A stretch of 64,000 nt of DNA from NCBI GenBank assembly GCA_965205865.1, contig CBDBHR010000030.1, forward strand, positions 224,001 to 288,000, read 5' to 3'. The position numbers were made by a program, and so were the translations under genes. Below are positions 44,280 to 50,241 of the stretch, piece after piece. How positions within the stretch are numbered: position 1 is the first letter of the stretch; every line of letters starts with the position of its first letter. Origin of the DNA: a bacterium (GTDB lineage: Bacteria; SAR324; NAC60-12). A model generated the notes under the pieces. It saw nothing but the letters and a program-made list of their open reading frames with translations, had not been told where the DNA came from and ran no database searches.

Positions 44280-45079
44280 ATGTCAGACCCAAAACACACT
44301 GCATACGAGCGTTTGAAGGAGCTTCACTCCGAAGCCGAATCGGCGACACACGCGTGGACAAAAATGGGAAATTTACTGAATGGCGTCAGAAAGTGCAGTC
44401 GGCACTGCGTCATTTGTTCGACGAGAATCGCCAACAACTCAAATCATTCAATTCCGTGCGTTATGTTCCACCTATGTTCTTAACGGGCATGCCGGACAGC
44501 GTGTTCCACAATTCATTCATAGGCGGTATGAAAACCGCTAGTGGAATCATACGCTCCGCAATTCAAGAATATGAGGATTACGAACAGCAAGCTGGTCACG
44601 ACGTCGATCACACTTCAGCCGACGGCAACTCTACCATCTCCCGTAAAGTTTTCGTCGTTCATGGTCACGACAACGAAATGAAGGAATCGGTCGCAAGATT
44701 CCTTGAGCGCCTCGACTTTGAAGCGGTCATTTTACACGAACAAGCAAGCGGCGGTGACACGATCATCGAGAAGTTTGAACGCAATGCGGACGTTAAATAT
44801 GCAGTCGTACTCTTGAGTCCGGATGACGTTGGCGCAGCAAAGGATAAATCCAATACACCGCAGCCAAGACCGCGCCAGAACGTAGTCTTTGAACTGGGCT
44901 ATTTCGTCGGGAAGCTTGGGCGGTCGCATGTCTGTCCACTGGTTCGTGAACCTCTGGAACGTCCGTCTGACATTCACGGTGTTGTCTACATCCCATTCGA
45001 CGAGGGGAATTGGAAGATTCATCTTGTCAAGGAACTCAAAAATCTTGGGTTCGAGGTCGACGCGAACAAGGCAGTCTAA
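44280..45079 (+). pseudogene. TIR-like nucleotide-binding domain protein (CAP12/Pycsar-type TIR), frameshifted
   Basis: VFVVHGHD, TIIEKFE, LLSPDD, RQNVVFELGYF and PSDIHG motifs. The N-terminus from ATG 44280 shifts frame near 44350. Confidence 0.75.
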
Positions 45080-45168
45080 TATTGAATCGGTCAACCGGAG
45101 CGGTGATTGAGTACGGAATCAAAATTGTCAGATCGCTGGCCACCGCTAGGTTAGCTCAGGTGTTTTGC
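45074..45168 (+). other. Degenerate integron attC-like site
   Basis: GTCTAAT overlaps the stop codon; AACCGGAGCGGTG pairs with CACCGCTAGGTT with a bulge; ends GTTTTGC just before the next RBS/ATG. Confidence 0.6.
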
Positions 45169-45183
45169 GGAAGGGAGATAGAA

Positions 45184-46455
45184 ATGAAGAAAGTTATTTT
45201 CAACATATTTCTCGTCATCTGCGTTGCGGGAGTCGCTTTCGCACAGTCGGTCGAAAGCGAGATTCGGGAGTTTGCCGCACGGGAGTATCCCAACGACTCC
45301 CGGATGCGGCAGTATGTTTACAAAGAGCAGATTGCGGCACACCGGTATATGGTTACCGCCAAAGATGCAGACGTTAAGCGAATTGCCATTCGAGAATACC
45401 CGAAAGACTACGCAATGCAGAAATATGCCTATTATGAACAACTCTCAGCAAAACGATACATGACCACCGTGAGAAATCGCGAGGTCAAACGAATTGCTCT
45501 GCGGGAGTATCCGAACGATTATTCCATGCAGAAGTATATATATGATGGGCAGTTGTCAGCAAAACGGTACATGGAAACTGTTTCTGATCAAGACGTGAAG
45601 AGGATGGCGATGCACGAATATCCGAATGATTATTCTATGCAGAAATACATCTATGACAATCAGCTATCGGCAAAGCTGTATATGTCCTCCGTTAGAGATC
45701 ACGAGATCAAATCAATTGCCATGCGGGAGTATCCGAAGGATTATTCGATGCAGAAGTATACATACGATGAGCAATTGTCAGCAAAACGATACATGGAAAC
45801 TGTTTCTGACCAAGACGTAAAGAGGATCGCGTTGCACGAATATCCGAATGACTATTCTATGCAGAAATACACCTATGACACTCAACTCACCTATGATACT
45901 CAACTCGTGGCCGACTTCGAGGCTTGGGTCACTGGAGATCGCTTGTATCGCAGAACATGCCCCAACAGCAAGTGTGGTGTTGTTGGGATTTTAATGTTCA
46001 GGGAAAAGGCAACAGTTTACGAAGAGAAAAACGGTTGGGCCAGAGTGTCGATGTATTACAATGCGGCTTGCCGAAACGGCCTGAGTGAGTACGTTGATTC
46101 AGGCAACGCGGCTTGCACTGAGAGCAACGGCATTGTCGACAGTCGCATTGCTGAATGGGTATCCATTAAGTACCTCAGCAAGACGCGTCCCCCCGATCCG
46201 AGCGCAGGTGCTACAGGAGATTACGCACTTGTTAGTGGCTCAGACGACTACCGCAAATACAAAGATATATTTGCCCGGACAGCCTCCAAGCTCATCGCTT
46301 CTGGCCAGTGCACTGCACGAGACTTTAAAGAAATAGGCGGCTGGCTGAAATCCATGAACTTCAAGGACAGTCCCGTGTACTTTACCTACTGTGGTGGGAT
46401 GATCGTTCAGAACCGGTTGTATCTCAATGCAGCCACCGGGGAAGTATTCAAATAG
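45184..46455 (+). CDS. Secreted protein with six ~38-aa repeats and an SH3-like/Cys-rich C-terminus
   Basis: Signal peptide MKKVIF...VAFA; repeats A.REYP.DYSMQKY.YD.QLSAKRYM; VYEEKNGWARVS SH3b-like motif. Confidence 0.8.
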   Translation: MKKVIFNIFLVICVAGVAFAQSVESEIREFAAREYPNDSRMRQYVYKEQIAAHRYMVTAKDADVKRIAIREYPKDYAMQKYAYYEQLSAKRYMTTVRNREVKRIALREYPNDYSMQKYIYDGQLSAKRYMETVSDQDVKRMAMHEYPNDYSMQKYIYDNQLSAKLYMSSVRDHEIKSIAMREYPKDYSMQKYTYDEQLSAKRYMETVSDQDVKRIALHEYPNDYSMQKYTYDTQLTYDTQLVADFEAWVTGDRLYRRTCPNSKCGVVGILMFREKATVYEEKNGWARVSMYYNAACRNGLSEYVDSGNAACTESNGIVDSRIAEWVSIKYLSKTRPPDPSAGATGDYALVSGSDDYRKYKDIFARTASKLIASGQCTARDFKEIGGWLKSMNFKDSPVYFTYCGGMIVQNRLYLNAATGEVFK

Positions 46456-46508: not shown

Positions 46509-46818
46509 GGGGTCAGGCTTGCAAGTTTGCGAATTTAAGAAAACATTTTTAGGTTGAGTTCTTTTAACCGCTCTTGGAGATTTGTGGATTCCTTCAATCT
46601 TTCTCTCAACTAATGCACTCCACGACTGAAAGTAGAATCATCTCGATTGAGAGCATTTGCCACTTCCCGGATTGTTGCAGATTTCCAATCGAAGACTGAT
46701 AAAAGCGACGAGAGTCGCTGTCATAGAAAAAATACGTTGGCCCCCATTGCCTGAAGTATCACATGTTAAAGCGTGCAAGGGTCGTACAAACACGTTTTCC
46801 GAGACATCTTGGCAAATT
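46509..46818 (-). mobile_element. RAYT-derived mini-element, copy 3 (right end missing)
   Basis: Left end and interior conserved; runs directly into the next copy at GGCAAATT/GTGAA. Confidence 0.85.
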
Positions 46819-46823
46819 GTGAA

Positions 46824-47828
46824 GGGGTCAGGCTGTGCGCCAGGAAAGCTGGCAAGAAATAGAGAGTGAAAGTCTCTTACTCGGTAAGGCAGTAACGACC
46901 CGCCGAGTCCCCGAGTCATGAGTGGTTATTCGCAAGGATAGGCGCTAAGCGTTGACAGGGGAGAACATAGGCTCGGTATTGAGCTCCGAAATCATAGTTT
47001 CAGGCGCTGACCTTGTGGTCTGGTGGGGAAGGCAATATCGACCGAAGGCGTTAGCGCGAGTCTCGGTCGAGCCTGGCGGAGTCAAAGACCCGGCGCATGT
47101 GTGGAAGTTTCTTGATCGGAACCTGGGAGATCCTGAAGACGACTGTCAACATTCCATTGGTAGTCGGATCGGGAAAATTAATAAATAACCCCGATATCTA
47201 CGTCTTCAGGAAGTCGGACAAGTTCGTAGTAGCGATGAAGCGGCGAACAATGAGATCATTTGCAGAGAGTAACAATGCAAAGGAAATCAACGGAGCCTGT
47301 GGAGCAAAGGGACTTGGCTGAGAGGAATTCTGCTTGCCCTCCTGTGTTCGTAACTCAGAGGCCGGTAAAATCAGAGAGCGGTTTAAGCAGGGTGCGCCAA
47401 ACGGCAACGTTTGAGCGTCTGACTCGAAGCAGGAGCCGGATGCGTTAGCAGCGCAGGTCCGGATCTGTACCGGAGGAATGACGAAAGGTGGCTGGAAACC
47501 ACTATAAGTCAGTTCTTTACGGTGACTGCAAGTTTGCAAATTTAAGAAAACATTTTTAGTTGGAGTTCTTTTAATCGCTCTTGGACATTTGTGGATTCCT
47601 TCAATCTTTCTCTCAACTTATTCACGCCACGACTGATAGTAGAATCATCTCGATTGAGAGCATTTGCCACTTCCCGGATTTTTGCAGATTTCCAATCAAA
47701 GACTGATAAAAACGACGAGAGTCGCTGCCATCGAAAAAAATATGTTGGCCCCCATTGCCTCGAAGTATTGCATGATAAAGCGTACCAGGGTCGTACAAAC
47801 GCGTTTTCCGAGACATCTTGGCAAATTG
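46824..47828 (-). mobile_element. RAYT-derived mini-element, copy 4, split by a group II intron
   Basis: GGGGTCAGGCT at 46824..46834 resumes as TGCAAGTTTGC at 47527. Confidence 0.88.
46835..47526 (+). mobile_element. Group II intron (family A, copy 2), ORF-less
   Basis: Starts GTGCG and ends GGTGAC; domain V GAGCCGGATGCGTTAGCAGCGCAGGTCCGGATC. Removing it restores the element terminal repeat exactly. Confidence 0.92.
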
Positions 47829-47832
47829 TGAC

Positions 47833-48199
47833 GGGGGCAGGCTTGCAAGTTTGCGAATTTAGGAAAACATTTTTAGGTTGAGTTCTTTTAACCGCTCTTG
47901 GAGATTTGTGGATTCCTTCAATCTTTCTCTCAAATTATACACTCCACGACTGAAAGTAGAATCATCTCGCTTGAGAGCATTTGCCTCTTCCCGGATTTTT
48001 GCGGATTTCCAATCAAAGACTAATAAAAACAACGAGAGTCGCTGTCATCGAAAAAAATACGATGGCCCCCATTGCCTCGAAGTATCACATTAAAAAGCGT
48101 ACCAGGGCCGTACAAACGCGTTTTCCGAGACATCTTGGCAAATTGAAAAAGGTTAAAATTTAAAGAATACCCATTTTTTCAAACTTGCAAGCCTGACCC
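47833..48199 (-). mobile_element. RAYT-derived mini-element, copy 5
   Basis: Both ends present (left end variant GGGGGCAGGCTTGC). Confidence 0.88.
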
Positions 48200-48243
48200 G
48201 TTTCTTGAAAATCTGATCCTTTTTTAGAATCGCTCAATTTAGG

Positions 48244-48267
48244 TATAAATCAGTTCTTTACGGTGAC
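48244..48267 (+). mobile_element. 3'-terminal remnant of a family A group II intron
   Basis: TATAAATCAGTTCTTTACGGTGAC followed by TGCA, as at 47527. Confidence 0.7.
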
Positions 48268-48497
48268 TGCATACTTGCGTATTGGTATTTTTATCGTTTC
48301 ATAGGTGAAGAGTCTCCCTCAGAATTCTCTCGGTTTTTATATTTCTTCAGGAAGCCTTAGAGGCCTTTATCCCTCCTGTTTCCCATGCAGGACTCTCATC
48401 GTGGAGCCAATCAGAGGGCCTCCGTCCTTTTCTTGGAACCACCGATTCCAACATCCTTTTCCATGCAATTATTTAATACAAATATGCAAGCCTGACC
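48268..48497. mobile_element. Second mini-element subfamily (ends ...CTTGCGTATTGGTATT / AATACAAATATGCAAGCCTGACC)
   Basis: Inverted ends related to 51251..51450; different interior. Confidence 0.65.
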
Positions 48498-48770
48498 GTA
48501 TGCGGTAACGACCGCTCTTCTAGTGGGTTGAAGTCCCACCAAAGTAATTATCCGTTCGCTTTGTAGGCAACGGGAGCAGCGTGGGAGTAATCTGGGGTTG
48601 TAAGTTCCCGACGCCAAAACAACGGGCCGTAACGAAAGTGAACCTAGATGTAGCCTCGAAACTTGAGTCGAAAGCGCCGACCCTGTGGTCAGAAGGGAAA
48701 GGCTGTTATCTCACGAATTAGACAACGGATTTCTTCGTGAGGGTTTTCCGGGGTAGCAGGGATGGCACCG
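48498..48770 (+). mobile_element. Group II intron (family B), 5' domain I fragment only
   Basis: Begins GTATGCGG; GTGGGTTGAAGTCCCAC hairpin, CCGTAACGAAAGTGAA and GCCGAC...GAAAGGC domain I-like motifs; truncated. Confidence 0.7.
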
Positions 48771-49095
48771 CAAAGAAGAAACGCAAAAAAGCTTCCTCGC
48801 CCGACTGATCAACCCCTTCCATCAGTAGGAATCTCTTCCTCAAAGGTGCCCCCTCAGGGGGCACTTTCTCTCTCGCAATCAGTGTTCCAAAGATTGGTTC
48901 AAATAACGTCTCGTTGTCAAATCGAACGTTATTCTGAGCCGCCATTTTTGCCCCTTGCAGCGAAAATGGTCGGACTCCAGAAATTTGTTATGGAAATTAT
49001 TGAAAATACGCTGTATCTAATAATCCAAATTAGGTGGTTGCAAAAAGGAACCTCTGATGGTAATTTAAAAACCACACACTTATAAAGGAGTTCAC

Positions 49096-49323
49096 ATGGC
49101 AACCGCGGTAAAACTATCAGATGATCTTTATGAAAAAGCAAAGATTCAATCAAAGGTTTTTAAAAGGTCTATTGCTGGTCAAATTGAATACTGGGCAAAA
49201 ATAGGACAAATGATTGAAGAAAATCCCGACCTCCCACTTCCGTTTATTCAAGACATTCTGGTCGGAAGAGAACAGATAAAATCAGGTCAAGGCGCTCCGT
49301 ATGTATTTGGAGAGGGTGAATGA
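49096..49323 (+). CDS. ParD-like antitoxin
   Basis: MATAVKLSDDL...RSIAGQIEYWAKIG..IEENPDLP family signature; AAGGAG RBS. Confidence 0.85.
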   Translation: MATAVKLSDDLYEKAKIQSKVFKRSIAGQIEYWAKIGQMIEENPDLPLPFIQDILVGREQIKSGQGAPYVFGEGE

Positions 49324-49610
49324 CCCGGATTACAGAAATAATCCAGTCACCTATTTTTGAAAAACAGAAAAAGAAACTGCGCAAACCGCAGATTAAAGAC
49401 CTGGATAAGGCTGTAAAGTCTATCTCCAATGATCCTACAATCGGAGATATGAAAGTAGGAGATCTGAGGGGTATCCAAGTTTATAAGTACGAATCAAAAA
49501 ATCAGCAGATCCTTTTAGCCTATGAAGTAATTGATTCAACTTTATTTTTATATACGTTTGGATCACATGAAAACTTTTATCGAGATCTGAAAAAATACCT
49601 TCAACGATAA
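49320..49610 (+). CDS. RelE/ParE-family toxin
   Basis: PTIGDMKVGDLRGIQVYK...LLAY...GSHENFYRDLK; ATGA overlap with the antitoxin. Confidence 0.85.
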   Translation: MTRITEIIQSPIFEKQKKKLRKPQIKDLDKAVKSISNDPTIGDMKVGDLRGIQVYKYESKNQQILLAYEVIDSTLFLYTFGSHENFYRDLKKYLQR

Positions 49611-49876: not shown

Positions 49877-50241
49877 GGGTCAGGCTTGCAAGTTTGCGAA
49901 TTTAAGAAAACGTTTTTAGGTTGAATTCTTTTAACCGCTCTTGGAGATTTGAGAATTCCTTCAATCTTTCTCTCAACTTATGCGTGCCACGACTGATAGT
50001 AGAATCATCTCGATTGAGAGCATTTGCCACTTCCCGGATTGTTGCGGATTTCCAATCGAAGACTGATAAAAGCGAAGAGAGTCGCTGTCATCGAAAAAAA
50101 TACGTTGGCCTCCATTGCCTCGAAGTATCACATGATAAAGCGTACCAGGGTCGTACAAACGCGTTTTCCGAGACATCTTGGCAAATTGAAAAAGGTTAAA
50201 ATTTAAAAAATACTCTTTTTTGCAAACTTGCAAGCCTGACC
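49877..50241 (-). mobile_element. RAYT-derived mini-element, copy 6
   Basis: Both ends and interior conserved. Confidence 0.88.

Follow-up and report, generated by a model that had tools for sequence, protein, structure and literature searches.

Group II introns that home into the inverted repeats of insertion sequences (IS), with RmInt2 as the example, and class IIC introns that seek terminators, hairpins or attC sites have already been described in print. Here we describe a group II intron lineage, which we call B, that has left a truncated copy in a terminal inverted repeat of a small transposon derivative, M2, in a bacterium of the SAR324 lineage (NAC60-12; assembly GCA_965205865.1). The stretch analysed, referred to below as the window, comprises 64,000 nucleotides (positions 224,001 to 288,000 of the forward strand of contig CBDBHR010000030.1); positions given without a contig name are those of the window, and this genome is G000 in genome-wide coordinates. 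We estimate with a probability of roughly 80% that the B stump lies in a repeat of the TIRtron type, at a site set by pairing of exon-binding site 1 (EBS1) of the intron, and that this habit is inherited across the B lineage.

RmInt2 of Sinorhizobium meliloti resides in the inverted repeats of ISRm17 (PMC4615759; this and most papers below were available in part and are cited for those parts). Like B, it lacks an endonuclease, uses terminal inverted repeats as its homing site, has two sites on opposite strands of each element, and lives in a mobile element rather than in a host gene. Unlike B, it belongs to class D, recognizes intron-binding sites 1, 2 and 3 (IBS1, IBS2 and IBS3), and is described there from one species and one IS. 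B, in contrast, has no detectable EBS2, takes the outer terminus of a Y1 (HUH) element as its target, and shows this habit across phyla. On the side of the target, the TIRtrons or TIRYTs (Di Nocera et al. 2013, PMC3733652) consist of a RAYT-like Y1 gene between terminal inverted repeats beginning GGGGWSAS, and form families of dispersed repeats. The element targeted by B resembles them in its RAYT-like Y1 gene, in its GGGGWSAS-type inverted repeats and in the dispersal of its repeats through the genome, and it differs from them in the DnaA-C-like helix-turn-helix tail of its transposase and in its internally deleted, tandemly arrayed derivatives. The available text of PMC3733652 does not contain the word 'intron', and in Pseudomonas putida two of nine group II intron copies are given in a table as linked to repetitive extragenic palindromic (REP) sequences (PMC1525189, in the part available). 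We found no literature that connects group II introns with the ends of TIRtrons/TIRYTs or RAYTs in a search that most subscription journals and supplements lay outside.

The window copy of B occupies 48498-48766 (+) and consists of 269 nt, the 5' part of an RF02005-type group II intron, with domain I alone. The Rfam model RF02005 (group-II-D1D4-6, a member of clan CL00102) matches it at 48530-48763 (+) with 73.5 bits against a cut-off of 49 (E = 1.3e-18), spanning model positions 1-225 of 225; the window holds three RF02005 matches in all, and the other two, at 46869-47091 (+; 173.2 bits) and 1020-1242 (-; 154.1 bits), belong to a different intron, family A. B begins with GTATGCGG at 48498, its longer 5' start reading GUAUGCGG. 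Within domain I, a hairpin at 48681-48697 (+), formed by CCCT (48681-48684) and AGGG (48694-48697) around the loop GTGGTCAGA (RNA GUGGUCAGA), has the same position in the RF02005 model alignment as the corresponding hairpin of family A. It holds EBS1, GGUCAG (48687-48692), which can form six of six Watson-Crick pairs with CTGACC (48492-48497), the IBS1 that ends the 5' exon. An earlier note on this DNA, made from the letters alone, had placed the 13-mer TGCAAGCCTGACC at 48485-48497, the intron start at 48498 and the hairpin with its GGTCAG precisely where we find them; its proposal of a group II intron is borne out by the Rfam match to domain I, with the correction that the window has a 5' fragment reaching to ~48766 and not a whole intron.

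Nothing of domains II-VI is present in the window copy, domains V and VI (D5 and D6) having no Rfam match downstream, and no reverse transcriptase (RT) open reading frame (ORF) was found among the window ORFs downstream of it. Comparison with the copy in the same-genus genome G019, to which the window fragment is 88.8% identical over 268 aligned nt of domain I, shows that B homology stops at GGGATGGCAC, at ~48766. At this point the truncated intron is joined, through the seven common bases ATGGCAC, to a frameshifted 3' tail remnant (48760-48828, +; the last ~22 codons) of a multi-copy ABC peptide-permease gene family. The remnant was identified from genome sequence matches: the permease tail has 41 of them, and the 13 copies displayed read ...YGTAKRKRKRGFLARLINPFS followed by a stop, in frame. 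Our first impression of 48760-48828 as a repeat element was rejected in favour of this gene tail. The permeases themselves form a large paralogous family with a common conserved basic C-terminal tail (...GGQGSYGTAKRKRKRGFLARLINPFS), of which the window has the one tail remnant. The window copy of B is thus a dead intron fragment, ordinary mobile-DNA debris without function.

The 5' exon of B is M2 (48268-48497, +), a non-autonomous derivative of a Y1 element that measures ~235 bp when intact. The intact copy that defines it, at G000:C30:65503-65737, is 88.7% identical over 230 nt, reads GGGGTCAGGCTTGCATACTTG...CAAATATGCAAGCCTGACCCC, and has the full repeat ends GGGGTCAGGC...GCCTGACCCC. Relative to this copy, window M2 is without the first 11 nt of its left repeat (GGGGTCAGGCT) and without its final 2 nt (CC). 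The right terminal inverted repeat, CAAATATGCAAGCCTGACC, lies at 48479-48497 (+) and is closed by IBS1, so that by the intact copy and by the covariation described below B entered the repeat 2 nt inside its outer end, at ...GCCTGACC|CC, i.e. ...TGACC|CC. As a single strand, the intact copy folds with a 17-bp terminal stem in which both ends are paired (z = -4.24).

Ends of this kind are numerous. The 13-mer TGCAAGCCTGACC occurs seven times exactly and ten times within two mismatches in the window (1.29 expected; none of 100 shuffles reaches ten) and 53 times in the genome, and AAGCCTGACCCC ends number 62 in this genome and 30 in G019, against none for the reversed control. The autonomous relatives are IS200/RAYT-like Y1 transposase genes flanked by GGGGTCAG... 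repeats (TIRtron type), laid out as GGGGTCAGGCTTGAAAGTTTG, a 312-aa ORF and CAAACTTTCAAGCCTGACCCC, with repeats that begin GGGGWSAS. In Pfam, the 312-aa ORF matches PF01797 (Y1_Tnp; 9.4e-14, 52 bits against a cut-off of 23) as well as Bac_DnaA_C, its DnaA-C-like helix-turn-helix tail; with the NCBIfam model REP_Tyr_transpos it scores 70.3 bits, under the cut-off of 80. The repeats can be assigned to a Y1 family because such full-length copies were found elsewhere in the genome; the short transposase-like ORF fragments in the window's repeat copies gave no useful Pfam match.

The target rule of B was read from its relatives. As a probe we used a 20-mer internal to domain I, present in the window and in genomes G019 and G071 and not in family A, and scanned one genome per species, which yielded 83 stretches and from these 80 loci, in Thermodesulfobacteriota, Acidobacteriota, Pseudomonadota, Verrucomicrobiota, a SAR324 genome and others. 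Fifty of the 80 loci are B-type, defined by the start GUNYGCNGU, and 44 of them were long enough to be aligned with the window, giving 45 sequences. In this alignment 91.1% of cells at exon positions -6 to -1 are paired with their EBS1 columns, and compensatory changes occur at each of the six pairs (CGCAAC/GTTGCG, CTGGTC/GACCAG and GTGTCC/GGACAC are examples). Positions -1 to -5 are paired in 41-45 of the 45 sequences and position -6 in 28, while the stem of the EBS1 hairpin is paired in 93.3% of cells. This pairing is not due to chance, because none of 500 shuffles reaches the observed values and slid controls pair only 31-53% of cells. The 5' exon ends N[TC]G[AT]CC in 37 of the 45 sequences and (C/T)TGACC in 15, in line with the CTGACC ending that the earlier note had expected to recur next to full-length relatives, and of the 19 relatives whose 3' end was found, 17 have a 3' exon that opens with C and 13 have one that opens with CC. 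No EBS2 emerged: among 5-bp helices joining the first ~250 intron nt to exon positions -7 to -30, the best pairs 59% of cells, compared with 97% for EBS1.

The relatives also connect B to Y1 transposons. An inverted partner of the last 14 exon bases, with at most two mismatches, lies within 2 kb upstream in 12 of the 45 sequences, where a rough by-hand estimate of the chance rate is ~0.6% per locus; this search replaced a measure of perfect arms that separated weakly. Seven partners lie at 8-61 nt and form hairpins, and five, the window included, lie at 635-1129 nt. At L034, L039, L050 and L063, the interval to the distant partner holds a Y1_Tnp ORF (Pfam PF01797, 5.7e-08 to 8.2e-15), and these four ORFs are 30-41% identical to the transposase of this genome. 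GG stands ahead of the left arm in 6 of 11 cases and completes GGGG, and the 3' exon supplies CC wherever it is visible; the intron has therefore inserted 2 nt inside a repeat bounded by GGGG...CCCC, just as in the window. We then searched the 2 kb upstream of all loci having at least 1 kb of flank with a home-made profile of five transposases. A Y1 ORF was found upstream of 6 of 43 B-type genome loci and of 0 of 24 genome loci of other intron types that carry the same 20-mer. In a separate scan of metagenomes, which gave at least 120 stretches of which 80 were taken (23 of them B-type with a 5' end), the figures were 5 of 12 and 0 of 15. Pooled, with the metagenome part coming from these 80 of at least 120 stretches, this makes 11 of 55 B-type loci against 0 of 39 controls (Fisher p = 0.0017). 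The Y1 ORF ends no more than 200 nt from the intron in 10 of the 11 loci, and at L074 the distance is 481 nt; the Y1 gene faces the intron at some loci and points away from it at others, the pattern that use of both element ends would produce. Judged from these sequences, the B lineage appears to specialise in the ends of Y1 transposons, its relatives in other phyla occupying that position in such ends or in hairpins composed of two of them.

Could such an association arise without any special relation to transposons? B might simply be a hairpin-seeker with a short YTGACC specificity, its link to Y1 ends a by-product of these ends being the commonest inverted repeats that finish in this way. 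The genome contains 5792 YTGACC sites, only 76 of which stand at the 3' base of an inverted repeat (arm of at least 10 nt, within 400 nt), and 54 of these 76 are the ...GCCTGACC ends of the Y1 type. Many relatives, moreover, follow short hairpins without a transposase, and class IIC introns are known to target hairpins (PMC1702495, PMC4424553, in the parts available). We nevertheless regard this explanation as unlikely. B inserts within the repeat's 3' arm, 1-2 nt short of the stem base, whereas the IIC intron B.h.I1 inserts 3-11 nt downstream of the stem (PMC1702495, in the part available). Changes at the variable positions of the GGGGWSAS terminus are matched by changes in EBS1, and several of the short hairpins have arms that resemble the repeats of Y1 elements at other loci: GGACACAATAC... 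(L038, L039) and GGTCAAATCTT... (C25, L034). Contig C25 of this genome carries another copy of B, whose 5' junction follows a different hairpin, GGGGTCAAATC...GATTTGACC, with arms like the repeat of the L034 element. Since most inverted-repeat-based YTGACC sites are ...GCCTGACC ends, an intron with the rule inherited by B is expected to be found in this repeat family, and both the window insertion and the C25 hairpin fit the landing sites so expected.

A more trivial explanation would be that the adjacency is secondary, a transposon having inserted beside an existing intron or a chance rearrangement having joined the fragment to a repeat end. The region is indeed a patchwork of rearranged mobile DNA, in which the 3' end of B is an illegitimate junction and the neighbouring family A intron is mostly deleted. 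This scenario is very improbable in our view: the 5' end of B is exact and is identical in two other copies (C25 and G019), and the repeat is missing precisely its last 2 nt, as in those relatives in which both exons are visible. Nor is there a reason why a transposon end should complement EBS1, and still the two change together over the 45 sequences.

The second intron at M2 belongs to family A. A remnant of it, its last 24 nt (...CAGTTCTTTACGGTGAC), is recognised by sequence match at 48244-48267 (+) in the left repeat of M2. It is followed by TGCATACTTG, the inner half of that repeat; the remainder of A has been lost, as has the repeat's outer half, and the A insertion had split the repeat at GGGGTCAGGCT|TGCATA. 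Both introns are read on the + strand of the window, at the two inverted ends of one element. Domain I of A and that of B are 48% identical, and the RTs are likewise distant: the N-terminal RT remnant of the G019 copy of B is 24% identical to the 470-aa RT of A and 56% identical to the B-lineage RT of the same-class genome G071, and the two full RTs, of A and of the B lineage, are 33% identical. In a quick maximum-likelihood tree of 31 RTs, A and four of its five relatives form one clade (SH-aLRT 96), the fifth, L115, falling outside with a very long branch. A separate clade (SH-aLRT 96) unites 15 of the 16 B-type RTs and two loci that do not extend to the intron's 5' end, and the remaining B row, L100, is probably the wrong ORF and has a very long branch.

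Family A is abundant in this genome, and its full-length copies carry an RT. Where its 5' end is preserved (41 copies), it follows GGTCAGGCY exactly in 28 and within one mismatch in 36. Three relatives of A in other genomes of the phylum, with RTs 45-53% identical, follow exons ending CCCTTA, CGCTTA and TTCCTA; for the closest foreign relative of A, L112 (RT 82% identical), the 5' end was not located. The specificity of A for GGGGTCAGGCY|T therefore looks acquired in this genus, as far as these sequences tell, because relatives elsewhere follow other exon ends. By the same comparison the specificity of B looks inherited, because relatives in several phyla abut the same kind of transposon end.

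These results bear on the proposal of the earlier note that two unrelated lineages had independently evolved onto one abundant, neutral and perhaps often single-stranded ~15-bp motif, in the manner of attC-targeting IIC introns. A second, different intron does occupy the same terminal repeat with the motif in the opposite orientation, and the RT phylogeny supports its independence from A. The motif is as abundant as had been supposed, and its being single-stranded is plausible given that it lies at an end of a Y1/HUH element and that the ends of the intact copy pair with each other. Convergence fits A, which seems to have acquired this target, since its relatives elsewhere have other exons. 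It does not fit B, whose YTGWCC|CC rule at GGGG... ends is common to relatives in other phyla that abut homologous Y1 elements, and which occurs at one end here with 62 others free. The IIC analogy describes the behaviour of B well and its membership badly, as D5 and the length of IBS1 both speak against class IIC. Taken as a whole, we consider independent evolution of both lineages onto the motif doubtful, if still somewhat more probable than a general preference for hairpins.

Several observations weigh against the reading of B as an inherited specialist of these ends. The CC expected after the intron is not visible in the window, where the 3' junction of B has been lost. This genome has only one B insertion at a ...GCCTGACC end and 62 intact AAGCCTGACCCC ends without B, and the hairpin before its other preserved 5' junction, that on C25, is a different one. 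No inverted partner lies within 2 kb of the same-genus copy in G019, and no 14-nt inverted partner lies within 2 kb in 33 of the 45 relatives. By the earlier measure, perfect arms of at least 8 nt abut the site in 7 of 50 loci, compared with 37 of 920 random positions (4%). The p value of 0.0017 overstates the association with Y1 genes, as some loci are near-copies (L135 and L050 look like one element), loci of related genomes are not independent of each other, and one element seems to have been sampled twice in at least two metagenome/genome pairs. Finally, in L098 and L103 the EBS1, GGACAC, mismatches the intron's own exon, TTGACC, possibly through an ectopic insertion or a recent change of EBS1.

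To place B among the known intron classes we turned to its relatives. The RT of an intact relative has 433 aa, matches TIGR04416 with 388 bits, and comprises RVT_1 and GIIM domains without an endonuclease domain, a trait common to classes C, D, E and F and so not decisive for class. The same intron has 1916 nt, which after subtraction of the 1302-nt ORF leaves a ribozyme of 614 nt. D5 was found in 19 of 20 relatives (RF00029 scores 45.9 bits in L017 and 43.4 bits in L020); it has AGC in all 19, a 2-nt bulge, and a 5-nt loop (GAAAA or GAGAA) in 16 of 19 minimum-energy folds. The search pattern for D5 demanded A/G-G-C, and the one miss of the 20 could differ. Among solved RT structures, the best matches are IIC (7uim, 1.6e-58; 6ar1, 8e-55), followed by IIB (6me0, 4.9e-43), with no RT structures of classes D, E or F among the matches. 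On the strength of these structures and of the hairpin-adjacent relatives we had first filed B under IIC, and we withdrew this assignment in view of the AGC of D5 and the 5-6 bp of IBS1.

Comparison with the published classes, in the parts of the papers available, points the same way. Group IIC introns (PMC1702495, PMC4424553) resemble B in lacking an endonuclease and EBS2/IBS2, in recognising IBS3 (for B, probably), and in having multiple ectopic sites. They prefer inverted repeats or hairpins, and B may do likewise: 12 of the 45 sequences have an inverted partner, with the site 1-2 nt from the end of the 3' arm, and M2 in the window has at present no left repeat to act as partner, that repeat having been destroyed. 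Group IIC introns differ in an IBS1-EBS1 pairing of 3-4 bp and a D5 basal stem with CGC instead of AGC (PMC1702495), where B has 5-6 bp, AGC and a 5-nt loop; in a ribozyme of ~412 nt (PMC3753933), as opposed to 614 nt; and in a site 3-11 nt after the stem, as opposed to one within the repeat's 3' arm. B does not qualify as a canonical IIC intron. Classes E and F (IIE/IIF; Ge.ur.I1, Pe.th.I2) share with B a small IIB-like ribozyme (450-700 nt without the ORF), the lack of an endonuclease and a 5-nt D5 loop (PMC3753933, PMC3552965). They have a covarying, well-defined EBS2-IBS2 pairing, in contrast to B, in which none was found, the comparison being one of class descriptions. Hosts of class F and of B seem to overlap (Geobacter, Acidobacteria), an impression from locus titles only. 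Class E/F thus fits B in part, in its D5 and size and not in EBS2. Many B introns also contain an insertion of ~80 nt in domain VI, beginning ...TATTTAGGCACC (L017, at 830-940; L030, L034, L047, L076, L093 and others, with the G019 copy among the carriers), that is absent from others such as L051, L042 and L085.

Elsewhere in this genome B is reduced to pieces: B positions 1-109 on contig C25, internal parts with the same truncation on C26 and C16, and 59 nt at C30:673533. The other B-like fragments (L002-L005) gave no Rfam match at the gathering threshold, being too short or too decayed. The sole RT remnant in the genome with more than 50% identity to a B-lineage RT is 66 aa long, on C25, and no intact copy of B and no copy with an RT was found in this genome. 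The G019 copy is longer: its 934 nt include both intron ends, a D5 match and a remnant ORF of 139 aa. Going by these two genomes, the genus no longer has an autonomous B.

How might B have arrived at its site? Endonuclease-less introns are described as reverse-splicing into DNA, with priming by nascent strands at replication forks (PMC4424553), and the Y1/HUH transposases of the IS200/IS605 group act on single strands and recognise structures at the ends of their elements (PMC6006769, PMC4853749), both in the parts of these papers available. We propose that B reached its place by reverse splicing into a small non-autonomous transposon, 2 nt inside the outer end of the right terminal inverted repeat. 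Site choice would have rested on the six Watson-Crick pairs between EBS1 and the CTGACC of the repeat, no EBS2 being used, and the following C probably contributed as IBS3. The DNA that received it may have been single-stranded or folded into a hairpin, either at a replication fork or within an intermediate of transposition, and nascent strands may have primed cDNA synthesis. Everything beyond domain I would have been lost later, and an illegitimate join through the seven shared bases connected the stump to the permease pseudogene tail. More speculatively, the paired transposon ends in single-stranded DNA might present the site, or a nick made by the transposase might help. Alongside an anatomy, a pairing with its covariation, a target identity and a cross-genome association that are directly observed, dependence on single strands and recognition of hairpins belong to the proposal.

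A bolder version would make the endonuclease-less B clade, spread over at least five phyla, a dedicated parasite of TIRtron outer termini and of the hairpin repeats derived from them, inserting between bases 2 and 3 of GGGGWSAS, with an EBS1 that tracks the variable WSAS and with a dependence on the transposon that is perhaps mechanistic. We advance this idea tentatively and rate it well below even odds. B may use the single-stranded, end-paired transposition intermediate, or the nick of the transposase, as an entry point or primer.

The surroundings of M2 contain further traces of both mobile families. The 330-bp copies arrayed at 46511-48198 and a copy at 49878-50241 are internally deleted derivatives of the Y1 element. 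The array consists of three head-to-tail copies, the first two ending at ...GGCAAATTG with the next left repeat directly after; the third, M1 (47835-48198, +), ends ...CAAACTTGCAAGCCTGACC, as determined by repeat comparison. The left repeat of the second copy contains a complete, ORF-less family A intron of 692 nt (46835-47526, +; identified by Rfam and repeat comparison), at GGGGTCAGGCT|TGCAAG. Adjoining the A remnant of M2 is an unrelated 41-nt repeat (TTTCTTGAAAATCTGATCC...; 48203-48243, +), identified by its ~30 genome copies, which also abuts truncated A introns elsewhere, for example at C30:655382-655423. Just downstream of the debris, 49096-49610 encodes an intact ParD-like antitoxin (75 aa, 3e-20) and a ParE-like toxin (96 aa, 6.7e-28), and at 45010-46455 there is a 481-aa ORF with a signal-peptide-like start and ~7 tandem repeats of ~33 aa (REYPNDYSMQKYxYDxQLSAKRYM...).

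In the wider genome, at least five near-identical full-length 312-aa Y1 elements, one of them L109, lie within ~30 kb at G000:C29:722000-753000, with A introns between them. The usual description of RAYTs is of single-copy genes; going by its copies, the C29 element behaves like an active insertion sequence, unlike them. At G000:C26:239010-240179 an A intron directly follows the 3' end (...ACGGTGAC) of another A intron, head-to-tail or nested. The genome holds at least four group II intron lineages, including a third family (L012, L013 and L014, on G000 contigs C26, C15 and C25) with a 460-aa RT with GIIM and domain I matches to RF02001 and RF01998, and a fourth, RF02005-type intron at G000:C30:878628 (L129), whose RT is 41% identical to that of A. 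Five D5-D6 ends belong to another family (G000 C23:187395, C23:120996, C29:587740, C29:587402 and C30:745180, minus strand); the 3' strand of their domain VI, ...CCTTCCTGACCCCTAT, includes CCTGACCCC, as in the repeat end.

The value of these observations lies in the lineage-wide habit to which the fragment points, and not in the fragment itself. The target rule of B can be read from covariation as an EBS1 of 5-6 bp and a C at +1 without EBS2, and it agrees with the conserved end of a class of transposons that has received little study and is thought to be mobile in single-stranded form. This also explains the litter of introns, from two lineages, in the repeat ends of this genome. As a rule it is both simple and retargetable, and intact copies exist in cultured hosts, e.g. 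at a locus titled Geobacter argillaceus ATCC BAA-1139. Should the link prove mechanistic, B would offer a natural system for how endonuclease-less introns find structured or single-stranded DNA, and for the co-evolution of nested elements. If B does use a transposition intermediate or nick, the ends of Y1 transposons would be a third kind of structured-DNA target for group II introns, beside terminators and attC sites.

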